Of a stretch of 60,042 nucleotides of DNA, positions 1 through 60,042 are shown one piece after another. Location: IMG/VR virus record IMGVR_UViG_3300036715_002143, positions 1 to 60,042 of that record; one strand, written 5' to 3'. Position numbers and translations under genes: made by a program. Numbering within the stretch: the first letter of the stretch is position 1; each line of letters begins with the position of its first letter. The notes below the pieces were generated by a model. That model was not told the origin of the DNA, ran no database searches, and saw nothing but the letters and a program-made list of their open reading frames with translations. The DNA is from a virus (lineage: Duplodnaviria; Caudoviricetes).

Positions 1-127
1 TCGGAAGCGGCTCGCTCGACCAGATGCTCGGGGGCGCCGACAAGGCCGCGAGCGCGCTCGCGAACCTGAAGGTCGACCGCGGCGCCACCGCCGTCGCGAA
101 CCCGTTCTCCTCGAGCTACCACCACGG
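1..127. repeat. Terminal overlap, copy 1 (identical to 59833-59959)
   Basis: Base-by-base identity for 127 nt; indicates a circular or circularly permuted assembly. Confidence 0.95.
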
Positions 128-344
128 GGCGACGCCCGCGAACGGCAACGGCGGCGGCGCTCTGCCGGGCTCGCTCGGGTGGACGTTCGGCGGCGGCGGC
201 CAGGGGGGCGCGGCTTCGCCCCCGGTCGCGATCGACAAGGTCTCGGCCAACATCATCGGCAGTGCGATCGCCGACTCGCTGAACGGCAAGCAGCTCACCG
301 GCCGGCACACGCCCATCTCCGACCCGTTCCGCCTCTCGTTCTGA
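1..344 (+). CDS. Tape measure protein, C-terminal part (continues from 58068 across the circular junction)
   Basis: ORF 24..344 is in frame with the open frame starting at 58068 through the terminal overlap. Confidence 0.85.
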   Translation, partial: GSGSLDQMLGGADKAASALANLKVDRGATAVANPFSSSYHHGATPANGNGGGALPGSLGWTFGGGGQGGAASPPVAIDKVSANIIGSAIADSLNGKQLTGRHTPISDPFRLSF

Positions 345-14850: not shown

Positions 14851-15375
14851 ATGAACTCGAAGCTCAAGACGTTCTACTCGCTGCTCGCCTTCTTCCTCGT
14901 CGCGCTCTACGCGATGCCGTCTGCGCGCCCGTACATCGAGACCGCCGCGAAGGCGCTCGGCGCCGTCGCCCTGATCGCCACCTCCCTCGCGGCGCTGCCG
15001 GGCGCGATCGGTCGCTTCGGAGCCGCGCTCGGGCAGGACGTGGACGCGCTGCTCGCGATCGTGCCGAAGCCTCCGACCGACGGCTCGAAGCCGAAGGGGC
15101 CGCCGGCGGTCATCATCTCCGCGCTCGCGATCTCGATGCTACTGGGCGGCTGCTCGTGGCTGAAGTCGAAGGAGCCCGTCCTCACCCAGGACGGCAAGGA
15201 CGAAGTCGCCTGCGTCTTCTCACACTTCCTTGCGGGCGACTCGGTCGAGGACACGGCGGCGGCCTGCGGCGGCCTGCTGATCAAGGACGTGATCGACCTG
15301 TTCGCCATCGCGCACAAGTCGGGTGTGCCGCACGGCCCCTCGCCGGCCGCGAGCTCGTCGACGGTGAAGCCGTGA
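14851..15375 (+). CDS. Holin-like membrane protein with internal lipobox
   Basis: GGAGAG RBS; two N-terminal hydrophobic helices, third hydrophobic stretch ends LGGC (Cys101); first gene of lysis cassette. Confidence 0.55.
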   Translation: MNSKLKTFYSLLAFFLVALYAMPSARPYIETAAKALGAVALIATSLAALPGAIGRFGAALGQDVDALLAIVPKPPTDGSKPKGPPAVIISALAISMLLGGCSWLKSKEPVLTQDGKDEVACVFSHFLAGDSVEDTAAACGGLLIKDVIDLFAIAHKSGVPHGPSPAASSSTVKP

Positions 15376-16193
15376 GCCGCGAGCTCGGCCGCTTCGGCAA
15401 GGGGTACCGGCCCGATCCCGAGCATCGCCGTTCGGCGAAGCGTGGGCTCGCACACCTGATCGGGACGTCGTTCGCGGTGCCGGCGAAGGCCTCGCTTCGG
15501 CAGTTCGCGCCGCCGGTCCAGGATCAGCTCCAGACCAGCGAGTGCACCGGCTTCGCGTTCCGGCGCGCGATCGACACCCGCCTCGGCTTCCATGGCGTCG
15601 CCTACGAGCCGCACTCCTGCCAGGGCATCTACACGATCGGCCGCTGCCTGCAGCGCGCGCGGATGCCGTGGGGCCCAGGTGAACCGCTCGCCGACGATGG
15701 GGCGATCCCGTCCGACGTCGCTGAGGGGTGCGCGAAGGGCGTTCCCACCGAGAAGGCGTGGCCGTTCGACCCCGCGACGGTGAACGCGGACCCGCGCCTC
15801 GACGAGATGCTCGACGCGGCCCGCTTCGTCGTGAAGGAGATCTACCGCATCGAGGCGGTCGGTTCTGACCGCGTGCGCGCGGTGATGGCGGCGATCGCGG
15901 CCGGGTACCCGGTCGTCTTCGGCACCGAGGTCGATCGGCGCTTCGAGGACTACGACGGGCGCGACCTCGTGCTGCCGTCGCTGCCCGGCAGGAGCCTGGG
16001 CGGGCACATGCTCTGCGGAGGCCTCGAGTACGAGACCCTGCCGAGCGGCATCGTCGTCTTCGGCGGCGACAACTCGTGGGGCACCGACACCTGGGGTGAC
16101 CGCGGGACGTTCCGCTATGGCGAGGAGTTCCTCGCCGACCCGCAGCTCGACGACCTCTACGCCGTCGAGATCGGCGAGCGAGGTGCGCCGTGA
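15372..16193 (+). CDS. Papain-like cysteine protease (peptidase C1A)
   Basis: DQ.....CTGFA (Gln/Cys), GGH (His), NSWG..WG..G (Asn); GTGA overlap. Confidence 0.9.
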   Translation: MSRELGRFGKGYRPDPEHRRSAKRGLAHLIGTSFAVPAKASLRQFAPPVQDQLQTSECTGFAFRRAIDTRLGFHGVAYEPHSCQGIYTIGRCLQRARMPWGPGEPLADDGAIPSDVAEGCAKGVPTEKAWPFDPATVNADPRLDEMLDAARFVVKEIYRIEAVGSDRVRAVMAAIAAGYPVVFGTEVDRRFEDYDGRDLVLPSLPGRSLGGHMLCGGLEYETLPSGIVVFGGDNSWGTDTWGDRGTFRYGEEFLADPQLDDLYAVEIGERGAP

Positions 16194-16477
16194 AGCGCGC
16201 GTTCACCCTCGTAGCGCTTGCGCTCGCGCTCGTCGCCTGCTCTCCGGCGCCCACGCCTGCGCCCGTGCCCATCCCGGGCGCGACACCGGCGGACGCGTGC
16301 ACCGCGCTTGCCGCCGAGTCGTGCCCCGAGGGGCTCGACCCGAAGTGCGTCGACGTCCTCACCGACATGATGCAAAGCCGCTTCATCGAGCAGCGCGCCG
16401 TGGGCTGCCTCGCGGCGTCGAAGTCGCCCGCAGAAGCGCGCGCGTGCAAGACCGTCGCGTGCAAGGGCGTGCCGTGA
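16190..16477 (+). CDS. Small Cys-rich lipoprotein (o-spanin-like position)
   Basis: MKRAFTLVALALALVAC lipobox, Pro-rich linker, six further Cys. Confidence 0.75.
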   Translation: MKRAFTLVALALALVACSPAPTPAPVPIPGATPADACTALAAESCPEGLDPKCVDVLTDMMQSRFIEQRAVGCLAASKSPAEARACKTVACKGVP

Positions 16478-16746
16478 GCTCGCTTGTCGTCGTCAGCATC
16501 GCGTGCGAGGCCGACCGGGCCTCGTTCGTGGTGCGCGCGGCGGAGACGCATCCGCAGGCGGTGCGCCCGATCTTCGACGAGCAGATCCGACGCGCGTCCG
16601 TCGCGCTCGATCTCTGCCACCTCGAGGCCTACCCGGACCGCGTGCGCGAGCGTGAAGCCGCGACCAGCTGGCTCGAGCACTGCCGCGAGGCGCGCGAGGC
16701 GATGACCTGGGACGCGTGGTGCGTGAGGAAAGGGATTCGACCGTGA
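16474..16746 (+). CDS. Hypothetical protein
   Basis: GTGA coupling at both ends. Confidence 0.6.
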   Translation: MSSLVVVSIACEADRASFVVRAAETHPQAVRPIFDEQIRRASVALDLCHLEAYPDRVREREAATSWLEHCREAREAMTWDAWCVRKGIRP

Positions 16747-17711
16747 GCATCACGAAGCATCCCGGGCGCCTCGGCGTCGACATCTCCTCGCTCCAGGGCG
16801 AGATCGACTTCGCGAAGCTCGCCGCCTGGCGCTCGCCCGACGGTCGCCGCATCGAGTTCGTGATCGCGCGCGCCTGCAACGGCACCGTCCGCGACTCCCG
16901 GCACCGCGAGTACCGCCAGGCTGCGAAGGCGAACGGGCTCCTCTTCGGCAGCTATGGCGTGCTCTACCCCGCGGGCGATGCGGTCGCGCAGGCCGACACG
17001 TTCCTCGACGTGGTCGGCGTCGTCGAGCCCGACGAGCTTCCCCCGATGCTGGATCTTGAGGTCGAGGACGGGATTCCTGGCGGCGATGGCGAGCACCGCG
17101 CGGGCCTCGCCTGGGTCGAGCGCGTCGAGGACGTCACGGGCCGGCGCTGCCTGGTCTACACCGGCTGGGGCTTCTGGAAAGCGATCGACGATCGCGCCGA
17201 GTCGCCGCTCGCCGACCGGCCCCTCGTCGTCGCCCACTACACTGACGGCGACAAGCCGCTGATGCCGCGCGCGTGGCACGCGTGGACGATCCACCAGTAC
17301 AGCGGCAACGGCGGCGAGCGCGTGGCCGGCTGCCTCGTCGACATCGACCGAGACGTCGCGCACCCGAGCGTCGGCCTGCTCGAGATCATCGCCGCGTCGA
17401 AGCTCCACGAGGCGCACCCGCGCCCGTGGATGCCGAGCGTCCACGAGCTCCAGGCGCGTCTTGGCGTCGATGCCGATGGCGTGTGGGGGCCGAAGTCGAA
17501 CGCCGCGCTGCGTGCCTACCAGACGGCGCAGGGGCTGCCCCCGACCGGCATCGTCGGCCCGCGCACGATCGCGCTGCTCTTCCCCGAGCACGTCGCGCCC
17601 ACCGAGCCCCCGCCGACGCTCCCGAGCCTCGAGCCTCCCCGGGCGCCCGCCGAGACCGCCCCGCTCACCGAGGCCGAGCGCGACGCGCGCGAGCTCGAGG
17701 GGGTCCCGTGA
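16743..17711 (+). CDS. Endolysin: GH25 muramidase plus peptidoglycan-binding domain
   Basis: GVDISSLQG.ID, LDLE and W..HQYS GH25 motifs; LQ.RLG..ADG.WGP.....YQ...GL..TGIVGP.T binding domain. Confidence 0.92.
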   Translation: MSITKHPGRLGVDISSLQGEIDFAKLAAWRSPDGRRIEFVIARACNGTVRDSRHREYRQAAKANGLLFGSYGVLYPAGDAVAQADTFLDVVGVVEPDELPPMLDLEVEDGIPGGDGEHRAGLAWVERVEDVTGRRCLVYTGWGFWKAIDDRAESPLADRPLVVAHYTDGDKPLMPRAWHAWTIHQYSGNGGERVAGCLVDIDRDVAHPSVGLLEIIAASKLHEAHPRPWMPSVHELQARLGVDADGVWGPKSNAALRAYQTAQGLPPTGIVGPRTIALLFPEHVAPTEPPPTLPSLEPPRAPAETAPLTEAERDARELEGVP

Positions 17712-17905
17712 GGCCCGACCCCCGCGCCGAGCCGGACGACGCCCCCGACACGCTCCCCGCGCCGCCGCCCGTCCCGTCCATGGGCCCCCGGACGCGTCCG
17801 TCGAGCCCGACCGCCCCGCGCATCGCCGACATCCTCGCGGAGGGCCGGCGCGCCGCCGGGCTGCCGGGCGAGCCTACGACCGCCACGCCCGAGGGCGACA
17901 CGTGA
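17708..17905 (+). CDS. Pro-rich hypothetical protein
   Basis: GTGA coupling at both ends. Confidence 0.45.
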   Translation: MRPDPRAEPDDAPDTLPAPPPVPSMGPRTRPSSPTAPRIADILAEGRRAAGLPGEPTTATPEGDT

Positions 17906-18057
17906 CCATGGAGCTGCTCGCCTCCCTCGCCTGCCTCTCGATCGGAGGCGTCGCCGCCCACGCGCTGCTGATCGCTAGCGAGGCACGCGACTCGGTGCGC
18001 ATCTCTCGCCGCCGCATGAAGCGGCACTGGAGCACTCCGCCGTGCCGCTCGAAGTAA
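17902..18057 (+). CDS. Small membrane protein
   Basis: One hydrophobic helix and a basic tail; coupled start. Confidence 0.45.
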   Translation: MTMELLASLACLSIGGVAAHALLIASEARDSVRISRRRMKRHWSTPPCRSK

Positions 18058-18317
18058 CCCCCGCCCTGCTCGGCCTCGCGGTGACGGCGTGCACCATCCT
18101 CGTCGGCTCGGCGGTCCAGGTCGTGCTCGCAGCGCGCGACGCCCGGGACGCCGCGTCCGAGGTCAAGGCGCACGCCGAGACGCTCATCGCGATCCGGGTC
18201 GCGCAGGGGCGGCACGAAGAGCGGCTCGACGCGCACGAGGACGAGATCGGCAGAGTGCGCACGGGCGTCGAGGCGAACGCGACGGCGCTCGCGCGGCTCG
18301 TGGGCACGAAGAAGTAG
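18042..18317 (+). CDS. Single-TM coiled-coil protein (holin or i-spanin-like)
   Basis: GGAG upstream; N-terminal TM followed by heptad-like helix; last lysis gene. Confidence 0.6.
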   Translation: MPLEVTPALLGLAVTACTILVGSAVQVVLAARDARDAASEVKAHAETLIAIRVAQGRHEERLDAHEDEIGRVRTGVEANATALARLVGTKK

Positions 18318-18351
18318 CGTCGTCCATCGCGACCTGAAGCCCGACAACATC
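18317..18351 (+). other. Non-coding copy of Ser/Thr kinase catalytic-loop coding sequence (candidate att core)
   Basis: GTC GTC CAT CGC GAC CTG AAG CCC GAC AAC ATC = VVHRDLKPDNI, with no in-frame start after the stop at 18082. Confidence 0.7.
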
Positions 18352-18402
18352 ACGAACGAGAACGCCGCCTGCCCTCACGGGTCGGCGGCGCTTCGTCGTT
18401 TT
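18352..18402. terminator. Bidirectional intrinsic terminator between convergent operons
   Basis: CGCCGCC-t-GCCC/TCAC/GGGT-c-GGCGGCG hairpin (GUGA tetraloop on minus strand) with pyrimidine-rich tails both ways. Confidence 0.75.
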
Positions 18403-18929
18403 GTGGCGTCACTTCGTCGCGGCGTCGTAGCGGGCGAGGGCGACGGAAACGTCGCGCCACGGCATCCGGTCGTAGTGCCCGTCGGCGCGATCTCCCGCGT
18501 GCTCGTCGCAGTGCGCCCACATGACGTCCCACCACTCGCCGACCTTGTGTCGCACTCGGACCGTGATGCCGTCAGCCATCGCTGGCCCCCCTTCCCCGCC
18601 TTCGCCTGCGCGGCCGCATCCCACGCATCGAGCCGCGCGCGCTCCGCTTGCAGCAGCCGACCGACCTCCGCCGAGCTGGCGTTGCTCGCGGCGATCCACG
18701 CCTTGTGCGCCTCGGTGTCGGCCTTGGTCGCCGCGTCCCACCGAGCCATCGCGCGCTGGTACGCGTCCCATGCCTTGCTCGCGGCGTCGCTCGTCGCGTG
18801 GCTCTTGCGAAGCGCGGCCAGTTCGGCGCGAAAGAGCGCCGCGACCTTCGTCTCTCCGCGTTCGTCCGCGAACCTCGCGTGCCGCAAGAGATCGCCGATG
18901 CGCTCTGCACGCTTGTCGTCGTCCCGCAT
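18375..18929 (-). CDS. Ala-rich helical hypothetical protein
   Basis: TGATG coupling; 3' end overlaps the next small gene, so the true end is uncertain. Confidence 0.5.
   Translation of the reverse strand: MRDDDKRAERIGDLLRHARFADERGETKVAALFRAELAALRKSHATSDAASKAWDAYQRAMARWDAATKADTEAHKAWIAASNASSAEVGRLLQAERARLDAWDAAAQAKAGKGGQRWLTASRSECDTRSASGGTSCGRTATSTREIAPTGTTTGCRGATFPSPSPATTPRRSDATKRRSAADP
18409..18579 (-). CDS. Hypothetical protein (56 aa)
   Basis: Purine-rich RBS; ends just before the terminator. Confidence 0.5.
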   Translation of the reverse strand: MADGITVRVRHKVGEWWDVMWAHCDEHAGDRADGHYDRMPWRDVSVALARYDAATK

Positions 18930-19201
18930 CACCCGCCTCCCTTCGCGCCGCGCGCCCCGGTCCCGTCGCACGTCGGGCAACGTCGCCGGCCGACGATCGC
19001 GCCTTGGCCTCCGCAGTCTCCGCACGCCTCCCCCGCTCCCGCGGCCGGCGGTGGGGTGGCGATGTCGAGGTGGCGCCCGCACGCGTCGCAGAACACGCGA
19101 CCGCTGGTGGGCGTCCACTGCTGGAGCGTCAGCGCGCGCAGGCAGTGCCCGCAGCGCGCAACGCCGCTCGTCGTGTCGATTTGCAACGCGTCGTCGCTCA
19201 C
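18929..19201 (-). CDS. Zn-finger protein with DnaJ-type CxxCxGxG repeats
   Basis: CGHC, CDAC, CGDCGGQG, CPTCDGTG. Confidence 0.65.
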   Translation of the reverse strand: MSDDALQIDTTSGVARCGHCLRALTLQQWTPTSGRVFCDACGRHLDIATPPPAAGAGEACGDCGGQGAIVGRRRCPTCDGTGARGAKGGG

Positions 19202-20310
19202 TCCCCACCTCCCGCCTTCTCCGCCGAGGAGTGGCAGTCGCATTGACACGTCGGTCCGCACCGTCGCCGCCCGCGGCCGAAGCACGGACCTAGATGCATG
19301 TTGCCGTGCGGGCACGCGACCTCGTCGGCCTCGGTCCAGTCGTCTTCCCTCGCCCCTCCCGGCGCGGACGAGGCGGGGGTCGCGACCGGCGGCCACGGCT
19401 CGCCACGCGCGCGCCTCGCCTCTTGCAGCGCGTAGGTGAGATCGTTCCAGTGCCGCGATTCGACCACCTCCTCGACCTCGGCTTCGTACAACGCGAACGC
19501 CGCGTGCTCGATCGCCACGGCCCGCTCGACCGCGGCGAGGGCGGCGAGGAGGGCGCGCACTGCGTCGATCGCCGATCCATCGGCGGGCGGATGCGCGCCG
19601 GCGTCCGCGAGCGCCAGCCTGATTTCGAGCATCTCGTCATGGTCCTCGCGAAGGTCCTTCGCCCACGCTTCGACCGCCTCGATCGGCCCAGGCTCGTGCA
19701 CGTAGTCGGCCTCGTAGCAGATGCCGATCGCGTGCGCCGAGCGGAGGGCGTACTCCTTCAACGTCGAGATGTCCGCCCGCATCGCAGCCGACTCGGCGAG
19801 GGCGGCGTCGCGGGCGGCGACGGCTGCGTCAAAGCACGTGCCCAAGCTCGCCAGGCGGGCCTCCGCCGTCCACGCGCGCACGTTCTCCTTGGCCCACATG
19901 CCGGCGAGCTTTGCGTGGGCGTCTCGCTCGCGCCTCGCGCCGTCCCGCTCCGCCGTCAACGTCGCCTCGCGCGCGGCGAGGAGGGAGGCGATACCGACGG
20001 CGTCCGCCCGGAACGCCGGGTCCAGGTCGATCTCCACGTCGTCGCCGATCCATCGCTCCAACTGCTCGCGCACCCACGACGCATGGAACGGGTAGCGCGC
20101 GATCACGTGGCGTGCTGCGTCCTCACGGTGGCTGCGCGTCACCACGGCGCTTGGGGGGTGCGGGTTGGCGGGGGCGTCATCGGGCATCGGGGGACTCCTG
20201 GGCGCGATTGCGTGCGCGGTACAGGTCGAGCGCTGCGCGCCCTCCAGCATGTCGATCGCCCTGTCCAGCGCCTGCAAGTCCACCGGGCTCGCTTCGTTCG
20301 TCGTGGTCAT
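19198..20310 (-). CDS. Coiled-coil hypothetical protein
   Basis: ATGA/GTGA coupling; Ala/Glu/Arg-rich. Confidence 0.6.
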   Translation of the reverse strand: MTTTNEASPVDLQALDRAIDMLEGAQRSTCTAHAIAPRSPPMPDDAPANPHPPSAVVTRSHREDAARHVIARYPFHASWVREQLERWIGDDVEIDLDPAFRADAVGIASLLAAREATLTAERDGARRERDAHAKLAGMWAKENVRAWTAEARLASLGTCFDAAVAARDAALAESAAMRADISTLKEYALRSAHAIGICYEADYVHEPGPIEAVEAWAKDLREDHDEMLEIRLALADAGAHPPADGSAIDAVRALLAALAAVERAVAIEHAAFALYEAEVEEVVESRHWNDLTYALQEARRARGEPWPPVATPASSAPGGAREDDWTEADEVACPHGNMHLGPCFGRGRRRCGPTCQCDCHSSAEKAGGGE

Positions 20311-20546
20311 GTTGCAGCCTTTCGTTTCGCCATCGCGTTGCACGCCTTACACTCGCTCGCTCGTCCCGACGACCGCGCCGCGTTGCTCGCGAACGCACCC
20401 CGCGCGAGCCACTGCCGGCACGCGCCGCACCAGTGCTCGCCCGCAGCCTCGCGCTCGACCAGCGTCGAGACGTCGTGGCCCATGCGCCGCGCGCGGATGC
20501 GGAGCACGGCATCGGCGGCGGGGGTGTAGCCGCGGGGGCGGGGCAT
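20307..20546 (-). CDS. Small Zn-finger protein
   Basis: WCGAC...F..N....G....CKAC motif. Confidence 0.6.
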   Translation of the reverse strand: MPRPRGYTPAADAVLRIRARRMGHDVSTLVEREAAGEHWCGACRQWLARGAFASNAARSSGRASECKACNAMAKRKAAT

Positions 20547-23083: not shown

Positions 23084-23746
23084 CTACTGCGCGGCGCGTG
23101 CGGGCCGCGTGGCGAGCCAGCGCTGGAAGTCGGCTTCCTGCTCCTCGGCCACGACGGCCTGCCGGTCGAGCAGCTCGCCGTACGTCGCCGGCACGCGACG
23201 GTCGCGAGCGAGCGCGAAGAGGACCTTGAGCGCCAACTCGGCGTCGGCGGTCGCGCGGTGCGACTCCGCTGCGCTGAGGCCGAGGCGGCCCGCGACGTCG
23301 CCGAGGCGCTTCTTCCCGCGCTCGTAGCGCTGAATGAGGCGGGCCCAGACGTACGGGTCGATCCATCGAGTCGCCGGGTCGAGGGCCGGCGGCCTCACGG
23401 AGAGGCCCGTGCGCGCCCACTCGGCCTCGACGAATCGACGGTCGAACGAGGCGTTGTACGCGGCGGGCAGCGCGCCTTCGAGCGCCGTCGCAACCTCGAC
23501 CGCCACGTCGGCGAACGAGGGCGCTCGGGCAACGTCCTGGTCGCGGATGCCGTGCACCGCGGTCGCAGCCTCCGGGATCGGCATCCCCGGGTTGAGCATC
23601 CAGTGGTGCACGGCGACGACCTTGCCGGCCTCGGCGACGACGATGGCCAGCTCGACGATTCGGCCCTCGGCTTCGTCGAGCCCCGTCGTCTCGGTGTCGA
23701 TCATCGCCAGGCGCGCGGGGGCCCAGGGGGCGGTGGGGGCGCTCAC
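23084..23746 (-). CDS. DEDDh 3'-5' exonuclease (DNA pol III epsilon-like)
   Basis: IDTETTGLD, AYNASFD, HRATADA. Confidence 0.92.
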   Translation of the reverse strand: MSAPTAPWAPARLAMIDTETTGLDEAEGRIVELAIVVAEAGKVVAVHHWMLNPGMPIPEAATAVHGIRDQDVARAPSFADVAVEVATALEGALPAAYNASFDRRFVEAEWARTGLSVRPPALDPATRWIDPYVWARLIQRYERGKKRLGDVAGRLGLSAAESHRATADAELALKVLFALARDRRVPATYGELLDRQAVVAEEQEADFQRWLATRPARAAQ

Positions 23747-24003
23747 GGGCACCTCCGATTGAGCTTCGCGAAGATGCCTTTGCCGAACACGGCCTCGACG
23801 GCCGTCTCGTAGACGTAGGCGCGCAGCTTCTCGTCGCGGAACCTCTCGGACCACTGCTGCCCGATGCCCACGCGGACGAGCTCGTGCAGCGCGCTCCAAT
23901 CCGGATTCACGAGCGGGCTCGGGGGCGTCTCGCGGTCCTCTGCCTCTCGGCGCGAGATCTCCGCGCGCAGCTCGTCGACGGTGGCAGTGCGGATTGTGCT
24001 CAC
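23743..24003 (-). CDS. Hypothetical protein
   Basis: GTGA coupling at both ends. Confidence 0.6.
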   Translation of the reverse strand: MSTIRTATVDELRAEISRREAEDRETPPSPLVNPDWSALHELVRVGIGQQWSERFRDEKLRAYVYETAVEAVFGKGIFAKLNRRCP

Positions 24004-25220
24004 TGCGCAGCCTCCGCCTTCGCCGGCATCTCCGCGCGCGGCTTGAACTCTTCGTGCTTCGTCGAGGTCTTCTTCGTCACCGCCCCCGCCGCGCGCAGGG
24101 CGTTCACGGTCCGCGTCGTGATGCCGTCGATCGTCTCGACGGGGGCGACGCGCGTCCCTTCCGGTTCGGCCTTCTGCGTGGCCTGCACCACGGCCGCCGC
24201 GCGCTTGATCGCGGCCTTGCTGGTGTCGAGCGTCACCGCCCGCTCCCATGCGGGGCCGAGCTGCACCTTGAGCGCCTCGATGGCGGCCCGCGTCGATAGA
24301 TCGATCGCCTCGCGCGAGCTCGCGTGCGGGCCCCACATGGTGCCGCCGCCGACGTCGATCGCGCCGTGCTCCTCGGTGTAGAAGCGCAGCGCTTGCCAGA
24401 CGGCATTGATCTTCGCAGTCGCCGCTCGCAACGCCGCGTAGAGCTGCGCCGCGTGCTCGGGCGACGCGATCTCGCCGGCGCTCGTGACGATTCGCAGCCG
24501 GCGGACATCCTCGGGCGCCACCTCCGCGAGCGCGTTCTCGGTCGCCGGGCACTGCCCGAAGCGGTCGCAGAACTTCCCGCGGCAGTGCGGCCCCGCGACG
24601 GGCGCCGCGCCCGGGACGGCGCGCACGATCGCCTCGATGGTCGCTCGTCCTTCCTCGAGGTCGAACGCGTCGAGCTCGGCCTCGTCGACCCAGACGTCGG
24701 AGTCGCCGATCTTGGCGATCGACACGCGGGCGGAGTTGCAGCGCGCCACGCTTGCCGCCGCGATCGCGCCCGCGAGCAGCTGCAGGTTGCCCGCGGCGCG
24801 CTCGACGTGAGCAGCAAAGCCCGCCTTCCAGTCGGCGACGTGCACCGTGCGGCCGTCGACGCGCACGGCATCGGCCGTGAGCGGGATCCACCCGTCCGGG
24901 CACGCCGAGTAGTCGCGATGCTCGCCGCTCGGGAGCTCCATCCCGCGCCCCGTCTCGGGGTCGAACGCGAACGCGACCTCTGGGCGCCAGCCCTCGTCGC
25001 TGTGCAGAGCCCACCATTCCGCGAGCCACACCGCGTGCTTCGCGCTGCGCGGCGTGTCGTCGCCCGTCCGCATCGTGTGCGCGATGAAGGCGTGCTCCTC
25101 GTTTCCAGCCTCGGCGTCCTTGCGCTCGACGCGCTCGACAGCGGGCACATCGGCGCGCGCGGAGAACCCGCAGAGCGCCGCGAGCGAGACCTTCGAGCCG
25201 CTGATCGTGTGCGCGATCAC
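24000..25220 (-). CDS. PD-(D/E)XK exonuclease (RecB/Cas4-like), recombination partner
   Basis: AD........V.DWK.G, QL motif and C-terminal G.HC...C.....CP cluster; adjacent to annealase. Confidence 0.8.
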   Translation of the reverse strand: MIAHTISGSKVSLAALCGFSARADVPAVERVERKDAEAGNEEHAFIAHTMRTGDDTPRSAKHAVWLAEWWALHSDEGWRPEVAFAFDPETGRGMELPSGEHRDYSACPDGWIPLTADAVRVDGRTVHVADWKAGFAAHVERAAGNLQLLAGAIAAASVARCNSARVSIAKIGDSDVWVDEAELDAFDLEEGRATIEAIVRAVPGAAPVAGPHCRGKFCDRFGQCPATENALAEVAPEDVRRLRIVTSAGEIASPEHAAQLYAALRAATAKINAVWQALRFYTEEHGAIDVGGGTMWGPHASSREAIDLSTRAAIEALKVQLGPAWERAVTLDTSKAAIKRAAAVVQATQKAEPEGTRVAPVETIDGITTRTVNALRAAGAVTKKTSTKHEEFKPRAEMPAKAEAAQ

Positions 25221-26197
25221 TGGATCCCCCCACCGAAGTCCGGCTCGGGGTCTTGCGTCGCCGGCTCCTCGCGCGGCGCGTTCAGCAGCGCGTCGCGTCG
25301 CGCGGTGAGGTCAGCCACGATCGCGCGGCGGTGCGGCGTCCCCTTCGGCGCGAGCTTCGCGAGCTTCGCCGTCAGCGCGTCGCACTCGTCGACCGTCTCC
25401 GCGGCCGCGATGAGCGCGCCGGCCTCGATGGCCATCGCGTCGTAGTCGGGAGCCGTGGCCGACGGGGGCGCAGCCTGCGCGGGCGCTTCGGGCTGCGTCG
25501 CGCCCCTCGTGTGCTGCGGCGCCGGGTTCGGCGGCGGCCCGACCTTCTCCTCGACGGCGGCCGCGAGCGGCGTTGCCTCGTAGGTCACGCGCTCGGCCTG
25601 CACCGTCGCGACGATGCCGGCGTCGTCCATCTCGTCAGCGGTGTAGAGCCCATTCGTGAGATCGGGGAACACGGCGCGCGCACCCTGCGACGACGCGCGA
25701 GCGCGCAGCATCGCGGCGGGGTTGCCGACCCAGTTCTTCTTGCCGGTGAGCCCCGCCGTCTTCGCTTGCTCGATCGTGTACGAGAAGCGGATCGCAGGGC
25801 GGCCGCGGCGCTTGATCGAGTAGGTCGCGATCCTGTCGGTCGACTCGATGAGGTCGAACGCTTCGCAGATGTCCGAGCGGCGCAGGCAGAGCCCGACCAT
25901 CAGCGACGCGTCGAGGCCGGGGCGGCCTTCGATGATGTAGACGCCGCGCATGGACTGCATCGGGGTGAGCCCGAGCTCCATGCCCGTCGACATGCGGATC
26001 AGCGCCTCCTCGGGGGAGCGCACACCGCATAGGCCGACCTTCGCGACGGCCACGCAGTAGTTCCAGACGTCGTCCATGTTCCGCGGCGCGATGGCCGCGC
26101 GCGGGTCGATGATCGCGAGCGCGCTCGACGACTGCGGCTGCGGGGCCGCGGCGAGGGCGGCGGGGGGCTGGGGACTCGTGACGCTCGTTCCGTTCAT
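25217..26197 (-). CDS. RecT/Red-beta-like single-strand annealing protein
   Basis: G.ELGL.PMQS...Y.I.GRP, W...P..ML..RA.....R..FPD...GLYT.DEM; GAGGAGG RBS. Confidence 0.85.
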   Translation of the reverse strand: MNGTSVTSPQPPAALAAAPQPQSSSALAIIDPRAAIAPRNMDDVWNYCVAVAKVGLCGVRSPEEALIRMSTGMELGLTPMQSMRGVYIIEGRPGLDASLMVGLCLRRSDICEAFDLIESTDRIATYSIKRRGRPAIRFSYTIEQAKTAGLTGKKNWVGNPAAMLRARASSQGARAVFPDLTNGLYTADEMDDAGIVATVQAERVTYEATPLAAAVEEKVGPPPNPAPQHTRGATQPEAPAQAAPPSATAPDYDAMAIEAGALIAAAETVDECDALTAKLAKLAPKGTPHRRAIVADLTARRDALLNAPREEPATQDPEPDFGGGIQ

Positions 26198-26220
26198 GGG
26201 GATCCTCCTCGTGTCGTCGT

Positions 26221-26406
26221 TCACGCCGCGTCGCCGCGGCTGTCGTCCTGGTCGCTCACGAGCGCGAACGCGTCGCACTCGACGATCTCGATCGCTCGGC
26301 GCGGCAGCTTCCCGCCGCACACGAAGTAGCGGCCGCCGCGCAGCATGCGGAGGCGCGTCGGCAGGAACGCGAGCGCCGGGGCGTCTCGCAGGTCGGCGGC
26401 GGTCAC
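26221..26406 (-). CDS. Hypothetical protein
   Basis: GTGA-coupled small ORF. Confidence 0.5.
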   Translation of the reverse strand: MTAADLRDAPALAFLPTRLRMLRGGRYFVCGGKLPRRAIEIVECDAFALVSDQDDSRGDAA

Positions 26407-26981
26407 GACTGCACCGCCTTCGCGTCGTGCATGGCGGCCACCGACGTTGCGGCGATCGCGCACGAGACCAGCGCTTGATGGTAGGCGGCGCCGAGCGCCT
26501 CGGCCTCCTCGGTCGTGCGGCGCGACAGCGCGACCGCATCGACGTGCAGGTACGCCCGCGATGCCGCATCGAACTCGCGAGCCCGCTCCAGCATGCTCTG
26601 GACCTGGGCGAAGTTCACCCGCGCCAGGTCGACGCCGAAGTCGGCGGCGAGCCGCACGAGTGCGACGGCCGCGCGAACCCCGGGGGCGGTCAGCTCGAGT
26701 GCTCGCGCCTGCGCGCACTTCGGGCACCGGCCGTCGTCGTCGTAGTCGGCATTGAGCACGAGCGCGCCGCACTCGTCGCAGAGCGCGCGGGCCTCGCGGC
26801 AGCCGTTGCAGAGCATCCGGCCGCCCATCTCTTCGATGGTGATCAGGACGCGCAGGCCGGGGTAGTGGCGGTCCTGCGCGGTCTCGCCGCACTCCTCGCA
26901 CTCGGGCTCCGGCTCGACCTCGGGCTCGCGCTTGCCGTAGCACGCGTCGCAGTCCGTCGCGCCGCACATGCAGCGGCTCAC
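26403..26981 (-). CDS. Multi-Cys Zn-binding hypothetical protein
   Basis: CMC..DCDAC, CEEC, CNGC, CDEC, CPKC. Confidence 0.65.
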   Translation of the reverse strand: MSRCMCGATDCDACYGKREPEVEPEPECEECGETAQDRHYPGLRVLITIEEMGGRMLCNGCREARALCDECGALVLNADYDDDGRCPKCAQARALELTAPGVRAAVALVRLAADFGVDLARVNFAQVQSMLERAREFDAASRAYLHVDAVALSRRTTEEAEALGAAYHQALVSCAIAATSVAAMHDAKAVQS

Positions 26982-31288: not shown

Positions 31289-31627
31289 ATGACCAAGCGC
31301 AACTTCAACCCGTGGCGCTCGGACACCGCCAACACGCACAAGCCGCACTACGCGCGGGCGCTCGTGAATCGCCCCAACCCGACCACATACTCGGTGCTCG
31401 GCAAGGGGACGACGACGAAGAAGCAGGGCGTCGTGCTCTGCTCGGTCACCGACGGCGGCCGCGCCTTCGATCTCGCCAACTCGATGCCCGAGGCGCGCGG
31501 CTACGGCGCCGGGGACGATGGGGACGACCGCGTCTTCTACGTTCTCGGCGCGCAGGTGGAAGAGGCGGCCGAGGACGCTGTGACGATCAAAGTTGCCCCC
31601 GCGCCGCATCAACGGCCGGGGGCGTGA
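31289..31627 (+). CDS. Hypothetical protein
   Basis: Protein-like composition; coupled to the helicase gene. Confidence 0.55.
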   Translation: MTKRNFNPWRSDTANTHKPHYARALVNRPNPTTYSVLGKGTTTKKQGVVLCSVTDGGRAFDLANSMPEARGYGAGDDGDDRVFYVLGAQVEEAAEDAVTIKVAPAPHQRPGA

Positions 31628-31647
31628 CCAACGAAAGGTATTCGCCA

Positions 31648-33030
31648 GTGGCTCGAGAATATCACGACTTCGTCGCAAGCAAGTCTCAGGTCGAGGCCAG
31701 CGGAGGGATCACCCCTGTGTGGATGCCCGACTTCCTATTCGACTTCCAACGATCGCTCGTCGAGTGGTCGCTACGAAAGGGTCGCGCCGCACTATTCGAG
31801 GACTGCGGGCTCGGCAAAACTCCGCAGCAACTCGTGTGGGCTGAGAACGTCGTGCGCAAAACGAACCGGCCGGTGCTCGTCTTGACTCCGCTCGCCGTCA
31901 CGTCGCAGACGATCCGCGAGGGCGAGAAGTTCGGGATCGATGCGCGCCGCGCGCCGACAGGGCTCGTTCACAACGGCATCAACGTCGTCAACTACGAGCG
32001 GCTGCACCACTTCAACGCGTCGGACTTCGCAGGCGTCGTGCTCGACGAGTCGTCGATCCTCAAGAGCTTCGAGGGTACGACGCGCGCGGCGATCACGGAT
32101 TTTATGCGGACGACTCCGTATCGCTTGCTCTGCACAGCGACGGCCGCGCCGAACGACTACTACGAGCTCGGCACATCGAGCGAGGCGCTCGGCCATCTCG
32201 GCTTTATGGATATGCTGGCGCGATTCTTCAAGAACGCGCGCAACAACGCGTCACTCGGCCGAGCGTGGGCGACATCGGGCGGCGGTCAGCCGCAATGGAT
32301 GTTTCGCGGCCATGCCGAGCGACCGTTCTGGCGATGGGTTACGTCGTGGGCGCGCTCGATTCGACGCCCTTCCGACCTCGGTTTCAGCGATGACCGGTTC
32401 ACGCTCCCTCCGATGCAAGAGCGTGAACACGTGGTGCGCGCGCAGAAGGCTCGTGGAGGATTCCTGTTTAGCGTGCCAGCCATCGGGCTACAGGAAGAGC
32501 GGGAGGAGCGGCGCCGCACCATTCGCGAGCGGTGCGAGATGGTCGCCTCACTCGTCGAACACGATGCGTCGGCCGTGGCGTGGTGCCATCTGAACGACGA
32601 GGGCGACCTGCTCGCGAAACTCATCCCGGGCGCGGTGCAGGTGAGCGGGCGCGACTCCGACGACGAGAAGGAAGAGAAGTTCGCTGCGTTCACGTCGGGG
32701 CAAATCCGGGTGCTCGTGACGAAACCTGTTATCGGCGCGTGGGGACTCAACTGGCAGCACTGCGCGCATATGACCGCGTTCTCCGGGCACAGCTTCGAGC
32801 AGTACTACCAATCGATCCGCCGCTTCTGGCGCTTCGGTCAGACGCGTTCAGTTATCGTCGATCACGTGTTGAGCGACGGCGAAGGGCGCGTACTCGCAAA
32901 CCTGCGACGCAAGGCCGCGCAGTCCGAGAAGATGTTTGCTGAGCTCACACAACACGTCCAAGACGAGCTGCAAATCACGCGCGCCGTCGCCGACTACACG
33001 AAGAAAGAGACGGTGCCGTCATGGCTGTAG
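31648..33030 (+). CDS. SNF2-related SF2 helicase
   Basis: LFDFQ, GLGKT, DESS, TAT, GLNWQ, YQ.IRR.WRFGQ. Confidence 0.9.
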   Translation: MAREYHDFVASKSQVEASGGITPVWMPDFLFDFQRSLVEWSLRKGRAALFEDCGLGKTPQQLVWAENVVRKTNRPVLVLTPLAVTSQTIREGEKFGIDARRAPTGLVHNGINVVNYERLHHFNASDFAGVVLDESSILKSFEGTTRAAITDFMRTTPYRLLCTATAAPNDYYELGTSSEALGHLGFMDMLARFFKNARNNASLGRAWATSGGGQPQWMFRGHAERPFWRWVTSWARSIRRPSDLGFSDDRFTLPPMQEREHVVRAQKARGGFLFSVPAIGLQEEREERRRTIRERCEMVASLVEHDASAVAWCHLNDEGDLLAKLIPGAVQVSGRDSDDEKEEKFAAFTSGQIRVLVTKPVIGAWGLNWQHCAHMTAFSGHSFEQYYQSIRRFWRFGQTRSVIVDHVLSDGEGRVLANLRRKAAQSEKMFAELTQHVQDELQITRAVADYTKKETVPSWL

Positions 33031-34046
33031 CCGACCAAGTGCTGACCGATAAGTACGCCATATACAATGGCGATTGCGTCGACGTGCTCGCGCAGATGCC
33101 GAAGCAGAGCGTGCACCTGAGCATCTACTCGCCGCCGTTCGCGGGCCTCTATCACTACTCGTCGAACGAGCGCGACATGAGCAACTGCCGCTCGTATGAC
33201 GAGTTCATGGAGCACTACGCGTTCGTGGTGCGCGAACTCGCGCGGCTCACGCACCCCGGGCGCATCACGGCCGTGCACTGCACTGATGTGCCGAGCGGAA
33301 ACACGGGCCGCGACCACATGCGCGACTTCCCAGGCGACATCATCCGCTTGCACGAGACGATGGGATGGAAGTACTGCGCGCGCTACGCGGTGTGGAAAGA
33401 CCCGTTCGTCGTCTACCTGCGCACGCTCCAGAAGTCGCTCCGCCATCGAACGTGCGTCGATGACTCGTCTAGGTGCTCGGTCGCGGCGGCCGACTACATG
33501 CTCATGTTCCGGCGCGAAGGCGAGAACCGAGAGCCCATCGCACACCCGGTCGGGCTCACCCACTACGCGGGATCGCGCGAGCCTCCGGCCAACGTAATGA
33601 AGGACCGCGGGCACACCGGCAAGCAGACCGAGAACCGATACTCGCAATGGGTCTGGCGCCAGTACGCCTCGGCGTTCTGGGATGACGTGAGACTCGATCG
33701 CGTGCTGCCGTTTCGCGAGTCGAAGGACCCGGACGACGAGAAACATGTGCACCCGCTGCAACTCGACGTTATCGATCGCGCCGTGACGCTGTGGAGTAAC
33801 CCGGGTGACGTCGTGCTCACCCCGTTTATGGGCGTCGGTAGCGAGGTGTACGGCGCCGTGCAACTCGGTCGCAAGGGTGTCGGCGTCGAGCTGAAGCCGT
33901 CGTACTTCAAGCAAGCGCGGATGAACCTCGAAGCTGCCGCGTCGGGCGTCGAATCGGTCGCGAGGCAGGCTGAGATGTTCGCCACGGCGAAGCCTGACGA
34001 ATGGAGCGAGGGCGAAAGCGAGGACTCCGCTGGTGGTGATGAATGA
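33021..34046 (+). CDS. N4/N6 DNA methyltransferase (beta class)
   Basis: SPPF motif IV N-terminal; H..P, PFMG.GS motif I and G.ELK C-terminal. Confidence 0.9.
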   Translation: MAVADQVLTDKYAIYNGDCVDVLAQMPKQSVHLSIYSPPFAGLYHYSSNERDMSNCRSYDEFMEHYAFVVRELARLTHPGRITAVHCTDVPSGNTGRDHMRDFPGDIIRLHETMGWKYCARYAVWKDPFVVYLRTLQKSLRHRTCVDDSSRCSVAAADYMLMFRREGENREPIAHPVGLTHYAGSREPPANVMKDRGHTGKQTENRYSQWVWRQYASAFWDDVRLDRVLPFRESKDPDDEKHVHPLQLDVIDRAVTLWSNPGDVVLTPFMGVGSEVYGAVQLGRKGVGVELKPSYFKQARMNLEAAASGVESVARQAEMFATAKPDEWSEGESEDSAGGDE

Positions 34047-34118
34047 GCGCCCGCCCCCGCATCCACGCAGCCGTGGCCCGCACCCGCGCCGCGGGGGCTG
34101 CAGCTCGCGAAGGTCCAC

Positions 34119-41646: not shown

Positions 41647-41972
41647 CCGCGCCTGCCCGCTGCGTCGTCTGCCGCCGGCCCTTGCACGATCGCGCGTCGA
41701 TCGCTGAGGGCGCGGGACCCGTCTGCGCGGTGCGGCGCGCGCAGGTTCCGCTCGAGCTCGACGCGGCGGCCGACGCTCCCGCGCCGAGCGAGCCGGCCAC
41801 CGACTACGCGGCGACCGACTTCGACGACTGGCCGTGGGTCCGCGCGTGCCGAGAGGACGCGGCGGCGCGCGGCGTCGCGTGCCGGCCGGGCTGCCCGGGA
41901 GAGACGTACGGCCGGTGCGCGCGGTGCGCCGGCGAGCAGGAGCGCGCAGCGCAGAAGGCGGCGAGAGCATGA
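41643..41972 (+). CDS. Zn-finger protein (DUF6011-like)
   Basis: C..C.RPL.D..SI..G.GP.C. Confidence 0.65.
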   Translation: MTAPARCVVCRRPLHDRASIAEGAGPVCAVRRAQVPLELDAAADAPAPSEPATDYAATDFDDWPWVRACREDAAARGVACRPGCPGETYGRCARCAGEQERAAQKAARA

Positions 41973-42406
41973 CCAGCGCGCGAGAAGCGGCGGCCGCGAG
42001 CGAGGCCGCCCGAGATCGATGCCGTCACGGCCTGCTGCTGTCGTCGGCGCACCGGCCGGCCGACGAGTGCCGCGAGTGCGTGACGGCCGACGTGTCCGTC
42101 CTGGCGTACCAGGCAGTGCGCCCGGGCCCGACGCTCGACGAGGTCGGCGCAATGTTCGGCGTCACCCGCGAGCGCGTCCGGCAGATCGAGGCGGTCGCGC
42201 TGCGCAAGCTCGGTCCCCGGCTCGCCGCCGCGCTGGGGATCACCGACGCCGATCGCGGCGAGATCCTGTCAGACGCCGAGCGGCGCGATCGCGTCGTCGC
42301 TCGGATGCGCCGCGACGGGATGACCAAGGACGAGATCACCGACGCGATCGGGAGCGATGAGCGCGCCCGCGCCGTGGGCAACGCCAGGGAGAGGAACGCC
42401 ACATGA
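41969..42406 (+). CDS. Sigma-70 region 4 HTH protein
   Basis: TLDEVG..FGVTRERVRQIE..ALRKL closely matches RpoD region 4.2. Confidence 0.85.
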   Translation: MTSAREAAAASEAARDRCRHGLLLSSAHRPADECRECVTADVSVLAYQAVRPGPTLDEVGAMFGVTRERVRQIEAVALRKLGPRLAAALGITDADRGEILSDAERRDRVVARMRRDGMTKDEITDAIGSDERARAVGNARERNAT

Positions 42407-58067: not shown

Positions 58068-60042
58068 GTGGCGCAGCCCGTTCGGATTCTGTTCGTCACG
58101 GAGGGCGTCGACCGCGTCACCGAGGCGTTCCGCACCGTCGAGCAGGCTGCACGCCGCACGCAGTCGAGCGTCAGCGCGCAGCTCGGCAAGCAGGCGCAGG
58201 CGACGCGCTCGAGCGCGCAGGCCACCGTGCAGGCGCACGCGTCGGCCGAGCGCGCGAAGACCTCGAACGTCGACAAGGAAGCGTCGAAGCGCGAAGCCGC
58301 GGAGAAGCGCGAGGCCGACAAGTCGAACGCGTACTGGCGCAAGGCGCACCAGAAGCGTCTCGACGAGAATGCGCGCGCGGACGCGAAGGCTGCGCAGGAC
58401 GCGAAGCGCGCGGCCGACAAGCTCGCGAACGCGAAGAAGCACAACCCGAACGCCACGGGCATCGAGGGGCTCTCCAAGAAGGAAGCCGTCTCGATGCTCT
58501 TCGGGTCCTCGAGCGCTGGCATGGCCAGCCTCGGCGGCATCGGCATGGCGATCGGCGGGGCGATGGCGCTCAAGTCGGCGCTCTCGCTCGCGGCCAACGC
58601 CCTGACGCAGTTCGGCGGCTTCGTGATCAACGAGGTACTGCGCCCCGCGCTCGCGGCCAAGAAGGGCGCGGCCCAAATGGCGAACACCGGCGCGGGCAGC
58701 GCGGCCGGCATCTACGCCGACTCGCGCGCGATGGCGCTGGCGCACGGCGTGGGCGTCGACAAGGCGCAGGCGGCGATGGGCGCGGCGTACGAGAAGACGC
58801 GCGACTACGGCTCGGCCAAGTCGGTCGCGGGCCTCGCGCTCTCGCAGGCGCGCGCGTACGGCATCGACGACGTCGGCGGGCTCACGTCGCACCTGGCGAC
58901 GATGCGCACGCAGCTCCACGGCATGAAGGATTCGGAGTTCGCGGCGTTCGCGAGCACGCTCGTCGGGCAGTCGAAGACGGGCGGACTCTCGCTCGCGACG
59001 CAGGCGGCGCTCGGCGGTACGACCTCGGACATCGCACGCTCGTTCACCGGCGGCTCGGCCGGCCTCGACGCCCGCAACATCGCAGGCGTGCAGGGCATCG
59101 TCGGCATGTCGGCGCAGAGCACCGGCGACGCCCAGAAGTCAGCCGCGGGCCTCGCGTCGCTCGTCGAGCTCGCGAAGACCATGCGCGTCGGCCTCGACAC
59201 CGAGGGGCGCGTGAAGGACGTGAACGCGCTCGTTCCGGCGATGATCGAGAAGCTCGGTGGCAGTGCAGCGGCGATGAACAAGCGCGGCGTGGGAGCCGAC
59301 ACGATCGACTTCCTCCGCCCGTTCATGGACAAGATGAAGAACGGCGGGGCCACCGGCCTGATCGCTTCCATCGCATCCGCCGGCACCGACGCGAAGGCGA
59401 CGGCCGGCATCACCGGCAAGGACGAGGCGACGGTCGCGCAGACGACGCAGGAGCGCCTCGATGGCGCGATCGAGCGGCTCAAAGAGAAGCTCGTCACGCT
59501 GCTCCCCGCATTCGAGCACGTGATCGGTGCGTTCACCGACAATGCGCCCGCGTTCGAGGCCGTGGTCGACAACGCTCTGATTCCCTTCGGCGTCGCCCTC
59601 GGAGACGTCGTCGCGTTTACGATCAACAACCTGCAGCCCGGCATGGAGCTCCTGTCGGGGCTCTTCGAGGTTCTGGCCGGCGCGACGCGCGTGGCGGTGC
59701 TCCCGCTCACCATCCTGCCCGGCGTCATCCTCAAGGCGATGGCGATGCTCGTCGATCTCGTGCCGCAGTCGCTCCAGACCGAGGGCATGCAATCGTTCGT
59801 CGCGGGCGCGAACAAGTACGGCGACCTCGCGTTCGGAAGCGGCTCGCTCGACCAGATGCTCGGGGGCGCCGACAAGGCCGCGAGCGCGCTCGCGAACCTG
59901 AAGGTCGACCGCGGCGCCACCGCCGTCGCGAACCCGTTCTCCTCGAGCTACCACCACGGCGCGACACCCGCGAACGGCAACGGCGGCGCCGGAGCGCTCC
60001 CCGGCTCGCTCGGCTGGACGTTCGGCGGTGGCGGACAGGGCG
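58068..60042 (+). CDS. Tape measure protein, N-terminal part (about 700 aa including 1-344)
   Basis: GAGG RBS + GTG; long Ala/Gly-rich helical open frame; absent from ORF track because it runs off the end. Confidence 0.85.
   Translation, partial: MAQPVRILFVTEGVDRVTEAFRTVEQAARRTQSSVSAQLGKQAQATRSSAQATVQAHASAERAKTSNVDKEASKREAAEKREADKSNAYWRKAHQKRLDENARADAKAAQDAKRAADKLANAKKHNPNATGIEGLSKKEAVSMLFGSSSAGMASLGGIGMAIGGAMALKSALSLAANALTQFGGFVINEVLRPALAAKKGAAQMANTGAGSAAGIYADSRAMALAHGVGVDKAQAAMGAAYEKTRDYGSAKSVAGLALSQARAYGIDDVGGLTSHLATMRTQLHGMKDSEFAAFASTLVGQSKTGGLSLATQAALGGTTSDIARSFTGGSAGLDARNIAGVQGIVGMSAQSTGDAQKSAAGLASLVELAKTMRVGLDTEGRVKDVNALVPAMIEKLGGSAAAMNKRGVGADTIDFLRPFMDKMKNGGATGLIASIASAGTDAKATAGITGKDEATVAQTTQERLDGAIERLKEKLVTLLPAFEHVIGAFTDNAPAFEAVVDNALIPFGVALGDVVAFTINNLQPGMELLSGLFEVLAGATRVAVLPLTILPGVILKAMAMLVDLVPQSLQTEGMQSFVAGANKYGDLAFGSGSLDQMLGGADKAASALANLKVDRGATAVANPFSSSYHHGATPANGNGGAGALPGSLGWTFGGGGQG
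59833..60042. repeat. Terminal overlap, copy 2: 127 nt exact, then 83 nt of a divergent allele
   Basis: Direct comparison with positions 1-207. Confidence 0.9.

Follow-up and report, generated by a model that had tools for sequence, protein, structure and literature searches.

A kinase catalytic-loop sequence outside genes at the end of a phage late operon

A kinase-like stretch between converging operons

The 60,042 bases analysed here (the window) make up the whole of the virus record IMGVR_UViG_3300036715_002143, a myovirus-type phage whose rightward late genes converge with a leftward early operon. The two are separated by a spacer of 91 nt (18318-18408), the entire content of which is a kinase-like stretch of 33-35 nt and a hairpin. 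The stretch lies at 18319-18351 on the plus strand, and its eleven codons, GTC GTC CAT CGC GAC CTG AAG CCC GAC AAC ATC, read VVHRDLKPDNI. A single C separates it from the TAG stop codon (18315-18317) of the last late gene; the 35-mer marked in a preliminary description of this DNA begins at 18317, on the G of that TAG, and consists of GC (18317-18318) and the 33-mer. The sequence and its place behind the stop codon, as described there, are confirmed, the codon choice is indeed GC-rich (G or C at the third position in 10 of the 11 codons), and the gene order agrees with a convergence of late and leftward operons at this point. The upstream gene had been called the last lysis gene, which holds in part: it is the last late gene and follows the endolysin gene, whereas its lysis role is read from its position and hydrophobic N-terminus. 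This open reading frame (ORF) of 91 aa has zero matches in PHROG or Pfam, and may be spanin- or holin-like, judging by position only.

The stretch is not translated and is not part of a gene. Its frame, open over 402 aa, follows a stop codon at 18082-18084 and, as previously described, gives the stretch no start codon, because the first ATG, GTG or TTG after that stop is at 18403; there are zero start codons between 18085 and 18402. Two routes to translation were rejected: reading through the TAG in frame yields arginine-rich nonsense, the stretch being in the +1 frame, and a slippery site that could shift translation into that frame is absent before the stop. A search of the protein collection with the translation of the stretch's frame (18085-18684), aimed at wrong-frame calls in relatives, gave no match. 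The stretch is also the single kinase motif in the genome, as had been claimed, since a six-frame search of the whole record with the Pkinase model (PF00069) matched this place only (10.3 bits, E 0.0085, cut-off 31.7). It has the same 11 residues and codons as subdomain VIb of Hanks-type kinase genes, but it covers only model positions 117-129, 13 of the 263, and it is not accompanied by a kinase domain of ~260 residues, a start codon, a DFG motif or any other subdomain. When up to 2 mismatches are allowed, a degenerate DNA version of HRDLKPxN matches once in the window and in none of 100 dinucleotide shuffles, and a first-order Markov model gives an expectation of 4.7e-7 for this pattern and of 7e-12 for all 11 residues. 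A chance origin of the stretch is excluded, because of the 4.7e-7 expectation and the absence of matches in the shuffles.

The remainder of the spacer holds a bidirectional intrinsic-terminator hairpin, which folds with -31.2 kcal/mol on the plus strand and -32.1 kcal/mol on the minus strand; the fold z values for the 121-nt spacer region are -3.2 and -2.7. The 5' arm, rich in A, is paired to a 3' arm rich in U, giving a hairpin and a partly U-rich tail on each strand. The terminator scan found one terminator-like site on the plus strand, where UUUUGU follows the hairpin, and the tail on the minus strand (GUUCUCGUUCGU) contains 6 U in 12 bases. In 17800-19000 neither strand showed a promoter-like site. 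The late transcript carries the sense strand of the kinase-like stretch in its 3' untranslated tail, and in the minimum free energy (MFE) fold some bases of the stretch pair with flanking sequence. The patch, 33-35 bp and sharply bounded, takes up the sole free bases between the stop codon and the bidirectional terminator.

Host kinase genes and orphan loops in other viral contigs

The exact 33-mer occurs in six bacterial genomes among 185,579 species (bacteria and archaea, one genome per species), namely those of a member of the Polyangiaceae, Labilithrix luteola, a Myxococcota metagenome-assembled genome (MAG), a member of the Sandaracinaceae, a Planctomycetaceae MAG and an Eisenbacteria MAG. 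The preliminary description had pointed to Myxococcota as the place to look, and four of the six carriers belong there, each with its copy in a kinase gene. All six genomic copies are inside uninterrupted kinase ORFs with the expected downstream DFG, and their flanks are unlike those in the phage, sharing with it no more than the GC on the left; on the right there is no agreement. There are 0 copies of the exact 33-mer in IMG/VR, and a BLAST search with a 37-mer against 50,697 GenBank phage records returned chance-level matches only (E 0.1 or worse) and one giant-virus kinase.

Four Myxococcota genomes, selected as carriers of the 33-mer and not known as hosts of the phage, hold 5, 9, 13 and 18 loci within 3 mismatches of it, and three of them hold 134-168 catalytic loops of a broader pattern per genome. 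When positions 10-30 kb of the window were compared with these four genomes by BLAST, dozens of matches started at 18317-18320 and ended at 18348-18352. Other short host-like matches in 10-30 kb were set aside as conserved coding domains or a low-complexity EPEVEPEPE stretch, and weak kinase alignments extending leftward into 18265-18317 were discounted, being out of frame and typical of GC-rich DNA. Judged by its sequence, the patch is a typical member of a dispersed host repeat, its borders being the borders of conservation, and it derives from coding sequence for the catalytic loop (subdomain VIb) of Hanks-type kinases with Myxococcota-like codon choice.

Orphan loops of this kind recur in viral contigs, a recurrence that is new here. 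The strict DNA pattern CAYCGNGAYCTNAARCCNGANAAY matched 63 stretches in IMG/VR, against 1 for a control with the same codons reordered. Intact kinases account for 53 of these, by the presence of DFG and by hidden Markov model (HMM) checks. A kinase HMM built from the 53, to whose positions 130-143 the stretch in the window corresponds, was used to class the other 10: a frameshifted kinase (L102), a kinase cut by the contig end (L113) and eight orphans with zero kinase context within 900 nt in any frame (Table 1). The span on the HMM is 9-15 positions in seven of the eight orphans; the eighth, L105, with 46, is a fragment, in a phage record that is complete and contains no intact kinase. The clearly non-coding orphans are L105, L129, L137, L146 and L154. 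L130 (GC 0.45) and L160 are in frame within small ORFs, L120 lies antisense inside a 737-aa ORF, and the 'hydrophobic' flanking codons in L146 and L154 are partly due to an overlapping TAG. At loci with a GC content of at least 0.60, 7 of the 13 matches are orphans. In the four Myxococcota chromosomes, all 40 strict-pattern matches fetched from G001 and G003 sit in full kinase domains, as do all 80 broad-pattern matches taken from G002 and G004 (24 of these also conform to the strict pattern); orphans among the strict matches number 0 of 64.

The settings of the viral orphans are alike in part. In the window, L137, L146 and L154 the stretch begins 0-2 nt past the end of a well-supported ORF, whose stop codon is TAG in three of the four, and a terminator-like hairpin with a T-run follows the stretch in the window, L137 and L146, while L154, L129, L105 and L160 have no terminator directly after the orphan. 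The stretch in L154 is the whole of a 26-nt spacer and provides GGAG and ATG to a DnaB gene. The sites are non-syntenic, and related pairs of genomes (G408 and G410; the window with G404 and G409) carry orphans at different places. No gene family is common to all eight orphan-bearing genomes, the window included; a common effector gene beside the orphans was rejected as a candidate, no family being found in more than three of the eight. Neither a tyrosine integrase nor an intact kinase was found in the seven other orphan-bearing records. As a side observation, frame -1 to an 857-aa ATPase-like gene (73602-76175, minus strand; proportion of G or C at third codon positions, GC3, 0.95) at the L146 locus of G408 is open for ~740 codons up to the orphan, probably as a by-product of the extreme GC3. 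Literature on phage integration into kinase genes and on intergenic HRDLKP segments in phages yielded nothing relevant, supplements not covered, and kinases are not mentioned in the available part of a 2026 myxophage preprint.

The phage genome, its relatives and the sequencing runs

The last ~210 bases of the record (59833-60042) repeat the first ~210 (1-210), of which the first 127 are identical, and the genome is closed because its ends overlap by this length. After the first 127 nt the repeat shows scattered substitutions and a 3-nt indel, which suggests that the genome is circular or terminally redundant and that two or more strains went into the assembly. The gene order was derived from a GC3-based ORF call together with PHROG and Pfam scans. 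The rightward late genes run from the terminase (45.6 kb) through the head genes (48-53 kb) and the sheath (55 kb) to the baseplate (0-6 kb), the fibres and the endolysin (16.7 kb). The leftward early operon with which they converge (18.4-27.7 kb) includes genes for RecT-like, exonuclease-like, DnaQ-like exonuclease and HD phosphatase proteins, and beyond it lies a rightward operon with DnaB and a sigma-factor-like gene. The RecT-like and exonuclease-like genes are the only recombination functions detected in the genome. The 56-aa gene at the end of the early operon has no family match in PHROG or Pfam. The features are listed in Table 1.

Table 1 Positions of the features in the window, and of the orphan loops of other viral contigs on the kinase HMM
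Feature	Position	Strand	Basis or remark
Endolysin gene (glycoside hydrolase and peptidoglycan-binding parts)	16716..17711	+	PHROG endolysin families, best E 6.7e-20; marks lysis cassette and end of late operon
Last late-operon gene, 91 aa, hydrophobic N-terminus	18042..18317	+	ORF; GC3 0.95; stop TAG 18315-18317
Orphan catalytic-loop stretch, 33 nt, non-coding, in the 3' untranslated tail of the late transcript	18319..18351	+	
Bidirectional intrinsic-terminator hairpin, GC core 18363-18390	18354..18401	both	Folds, terminator scan
Last gene of leftward early operon, 56 aa, stop TCA (complement of TGA) 18409-18411	18409..18579	-	ORF
DUF2800/exonuclease-like gene	24000..25220	-	PHROG exonuclease E 2.8e-10; Pfam DUF2800
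RecT-like single-strand annealing protein	25217..26569	-	PHROG RecT-like E 2.9e-24
Orphan L105	HMM positions 97-142		
Orphan L160	HMM positions 132-145		
Orphan L129	HMM positions 132-146		
Orphan L137	HMM positions 131-142		
Orphan L120	HMM positions 132-143		
Orphan L154	HMM positions 133-143		
Orphan L146	HMM positions 132-143		
Orphan L130	HMM positions 134-142		

Three further places in the genome were recorded. The DnaQ-like 3'-5' exonuclease gene (23084-23899, minus strand) shows ~47% protein identity, in tblastx pieces, to genes in a Polyangiaceae MAG and in Labilithrix luteola; in 10-30 kb no other longer match to these genomes was seen. A helicase-C-like ORF (31312-33030) and a gene for an N6/N4 DNA methylase (33021-34046) lie in an island of lower GC content at 31300-34100 (0.635, against ~0.71), which may be a recent acquisition. 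An ORF with a sigma-70 region 4 domain (41834-42406, plus strand) has a BLASTP relative in the orphan-bearing record G404.

Contig comparison places the phage in runs X1, X2 and X4, and a relative of ~94% identity in X5; regions that contigs leave uncovered carry no weight in it. Logan contigs of X1 (record 3) and X2 (record 9), made with a different assembler, span the stretch and cross both of its junctions with 0 differences; they do not amount to independent proof, because the runs may be the source of the record. These contigs show no sign of the chimeric misassembly envisaged in the preliminary description. The depth of the phage is ~280x in X1, far above the other contigs compared. In the four runs with the phage or its relative there is a depth spike in the bin that holds the stretch, and many contigs have loose ends at 18317/18320 before it and at 18348/18351 behind it, with a consensus agreement of 0.55-0.75. 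This is the pattern expected of many unrelated kinase genes in the community, from which phage-host junctions cannot be separated in these tables.

The relative in X5, from a wood-decay metagenome, keeps ~94% identity over 15000-17712, loses its likeness near 17882 and resumes it at ~20.4-20.6 kb. Therefore the stretch lies inside a variable block and not at its edge. This block (~17880-20400, 2.5 kb) includes the spacer together with the last lysis gene on one side and the first leftward genes on the other, and resembles a mosaic replacement. X1 also contains a co-occurring strain of low depth (record 6), with ~89% identity over 18266-18407 (142 nt, 15 differences, 0 gaps). Further relatives proved scarce: searches of IMG/VR with the endolysin, a 381-aa ORF, the 91-aa ORF and the minus-strand stretch 18409-18935, itself extending over two reading frames, gave distant relatives or none, the 70 loci of the widespread phrog_12600 protein included 0 syntenic ones, a metagenome scan with the endolysin only found 13 distant loci, megablast of 8000-30000 against GenBank phages had zero matches, and tblastn with the tail sheath and DnaB gave remote matches only.

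Origin and meaning of the stretch

We consider it possible, with a rough probability of 0.45, that the stretch is a short host-derived patch that was inserted by illegitimate short-patch recombination and is tolerated where it lies, in the untranslated 3' tail. Host DNA in the form of a single-stranded piece would have entered the phage DNA during replication, through end joining or illegitimate short-patch recombination, and the source pool would have been the kinase loops, a dispersed repeat of ~130-170 copies per Myxococcota genome. The patch would have been kept since, placed and oriented as it is, it is harmless: it lies outside genes and outside the terminator stem, and, being sense-transcribed, it could not pair with kinase mRNAs. 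The entry route and the lack of function are the parts of this reading that we infer. Non-syntenic orphans without a common gene family fit independent accidents. The process of short-patch double illegitimate recombination, or SPDIR, as far as described in the available parts of two preprints (bioRxiv 10.1101/2023.11.22.568220, 10.1101/2024.07.02.601687), integrates ectopic single strands at microhomologies during replication, and the size of the patch agrees with the product of such recombination. SPDIR would thus be a possible route for the 33 nt, as it likewise builds ectopic single-stranded DNA into replicating DNA and leaves a short foreign patch. It differs, in what is accessible of these sources, in needing microhomologies at both ends, which are not shown for the window, and in being described for chromosomes and not for phages, and it leaves a preference for kinase loops unexplained.

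Several points weigh against a passive patch, each of them drawn from small numbers or from one control pattern. By our estimate, random capture over a 10-Mb host would place the strict pattern in only ~3e-5 of 35-nt patches, so that 5-8 orphans would imply implausibly many unseen patches. Random fragments or relics that hold the loop should mostly be longer, yet seven of the eight orphans span ~27-45 nt, and all 11 codons in the window are still perfect. Orphans are in excess over the Myxococcota chromosomes (0 of 64 matches there against 8 of 63 viral ones, Fisher p 0.003; 0.028 with the five clear non-coding cases), and the orphan is oriented as its upstream gene in seven of eight cases (the window and seven viral contigs, L130 left out). 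Two further points are that no flanking microhomology to a donor is shown, the six exact copies sharing at most the GC on the left, and that the insert is not brand new, because the ~89% strain in X1 has an equally long segment across the junction.

The first alternative, for which the odds appear to be roughly one in four, is that the stretch is a selected homology element, a recombination anchor or an RNA mimic taken together. On this reading the orphans would be a recurrent device of phages of kinase-rich, high-GC bacteria: a core of ~30 bp that matches dozens of host genes would have been acquired independently at different intergenic sites, always in sense orientation and often right after a stop codon and before a terminator, and would work by virtue of its likeness to the host kinase family. 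Its two forms are each unlikely when taken singly, the anchor slightly less so. As a homology anchor, ~30 bp that match many host kinase genes exactly or almost so would serve Campbell-type insertion or the pick-up of host DNA, with the RecT/exonuclease pair or host RecA as possible users and no need of an integrase. The phage has RecT-like and exonuclease genes and lacks an integrase, the position resembles that of the attachment site (attP) of lambda, each of the Myxococcota genomes offers 5-18 near-identical targets, and orphans are enriched in viral contigs over host chromosomes; the length of the stretch is close to minimal homology lengths for recombination. Such a use is opposed by the absence of a phage-kinase junction in the six genomes with the 33-mer, by the lack of any related prophage in a tail-sheath search of 401 Myxococcota genomes (E 1e-30), although the host may belong elsewhere, and by the depth in X1, which is that of a replicating or free phage. 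The edges of the variable block in the X5 relative (~17.9-20.4 kb) are away from the stretch, and a Pfam RecT match is absent in all seven other orphan records, though G409 has a BLASTP relative of the RecT-like gene of the window.

As a sense RNA mimic, for which we see perhaps one chance in eight, the patch and the terminator would form a small RNA (sRNA) derived from the 3' untranslated region, which would titrate a host RNA or protein that recognises the kinase segment. The layout suits this, with a stop codon, ~30 nt and a strong hairpin with a U-rich tail; it is repeated in L137 and L146, and the orientation is sense in seven of the eight orphan cases assessed. A precedent is given by AgvB and AsxR, prophage-encoded anti-sRNAs according to the available part of the source (PMC4104026). 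Their position as a phage-borne sense copy of a host mRNA target before an intrinsic terminator is comparable, although the host group is different. AgvB and AsxR reportedly act by mimicking mRNA targets. A host RNA or protein directed at the codons of the kinase catalytic loop is not known to us, which sets the window further apart from them. In addition, no Rfam family matched 17500-19500 at E up to 1, the MFE fold engages some bases of the stretch with its flanks, and four orphans (L154, L129, L105, L160) are without the terminator that such an RNA would share.

The stretch could, with similarly low probability, be all that is left of a kinase gene once carried by the phage, a moron closing the late operon, of which deletions took away both sides. 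Viruses of this collection do carry such genes, given the 53 intact matches and the two further real ones that are frameshifted or cut; one kinase is in the viral locus L082, intermediates are seen in L102 (frameshifted) and L105 (46 HMM positions), and the orientation shared with the neighbours is that of a former operon member. A remnant would need two separate deletions ending exactly at the edges of the loop, however, and relics holding the loop should mostly be long, whereas seven of the eight orphans cover no more than 15 HMM positions. Decay is absent in all 11 codons, and the exact 33-mer is found in bacterial kinases and in zero viral contigs.

An antisense RNA, also proposed in the preliminary description, is improbable. 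Leftward early transcripts running past the terminator would contain the loop in complementary form and base-pair with the mRNAs of many host kinases. By construction the complement matches 5-18 kinase genes per Myxococcota genome with up to 3 mismatches, and the tail on the minus strand, with only 6 U in 12 bases, makes some read-through conceivable. The hairpin is equally stable on the minus strand, however, the region lacks a promoter-like site on both strands, and surrounding genes run in the sense direction in seven of eight orphan cases, a poor fit to a designed antisense RNA. At L146 and L154 this holds for the genes on either side, and these orphans therefore cannot act as antisense.

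The reading as attP is not supported. The preliminary description had proposed an attachment or homology core for integration into host kinase genes, or the scar of an excision from one. A site-specific core of this kind, possibly served by a host recombinase, is largely refuted, and we would put its probability at a few per cent. It shares with the attP of lambda its position at the convergence of late and leftward operons, and there are phages without an integrase that make use of the XerCD of their host. The identity blocks of phage attP (cores of the lambda type, or tRNA-derived ones next to int) are likewise short host-identical DNA in a non-coding spacer; unlike them, the stretch matches the middle of a protein-coding gene family and not a gene end, it is without integrase and arm sites, and attL or attR were not found. 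A six-frame search of the closed record gave no candidates for tyrosine integrase (PF00589), serine recombinase (PF00239), rve transposase (PF00665) or 'Recombinase' (PF07508), and PHROG and Pfam scans of the ORFs of the window found no integrase or transposase. Around the stretch (17900-18900) the arm-type or inverted repeats are short and of low identity, as expected at 72% GC, with none flanking it. No tRNA was found. The likeness to host kinases ends at the edges of the stretch, and the six genomic copies are all uninterrupted. The proposed phage-kinase junctions are missing from these six genomes, and contig ends in the runs are not separable from unrelated kinases. A scar of excision would require an integration system, and none was found.

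Of the seven other orphan records, none has a tyrosine integrase and two have a serine recombinase, one 15 kb away and the other resolvase-sized; neither is convincingly tied to the orphan. The latter, in G406, is a small gene ~370 nt downstream of the orphan, which could be taken in favour of an attachment site, but it has inverted-repeat sites of its own elsewhere. These are two inverted repeats, GCGTTCAC(N10-11)GTGAACGC, at ~20400-20520 (L291) just upstream of the recombinase gene, and are likely its own recombination sites. As for a chance match or an assembly artefact, about one strict-pattern match is expected by chance in all of IMG/VR, and some of the weaker orphans (L130, L120, perhaps L146 and L154) may be of this kind, but for the window this is very improbable given the 4.7e-7 expectation, the identity of the 33-mer to real kinase sequence and the contigs of two runs from another assembler, which show no difference across both junctions. 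Virus-borne mini-CRISPR arrays or solitary spacers exist, and they too would present a foreign segment of spacer size (33-35 nt) followed by a hairpin; here there is no flanking direct repeat, the flanks of the stretch having only a loose CACGAA..GA..A similarity, seen by eye, and the hairpin reads as an ordinary terminator.

If the stretch is a passenger only, it would be a clean natural case of a very short transfer of DNA from host to phage with exact borders. It also carries a warning for host prediction, as a 33-mer common to many Myxococcota and to Planctomycetota and Eisenbacteria may give false phage-host links by k-mers or spacers. Should the excess of orphans among viral contigs stand up in a full census, this would indicate that phages use the most repeated coding sequence of their hosts in an undescribed way, which could be integrase-free recombination or mimicry of host mRNA; the interplay between the host chromosome and those Myxococcota phages that lack an integrase would then become testable.

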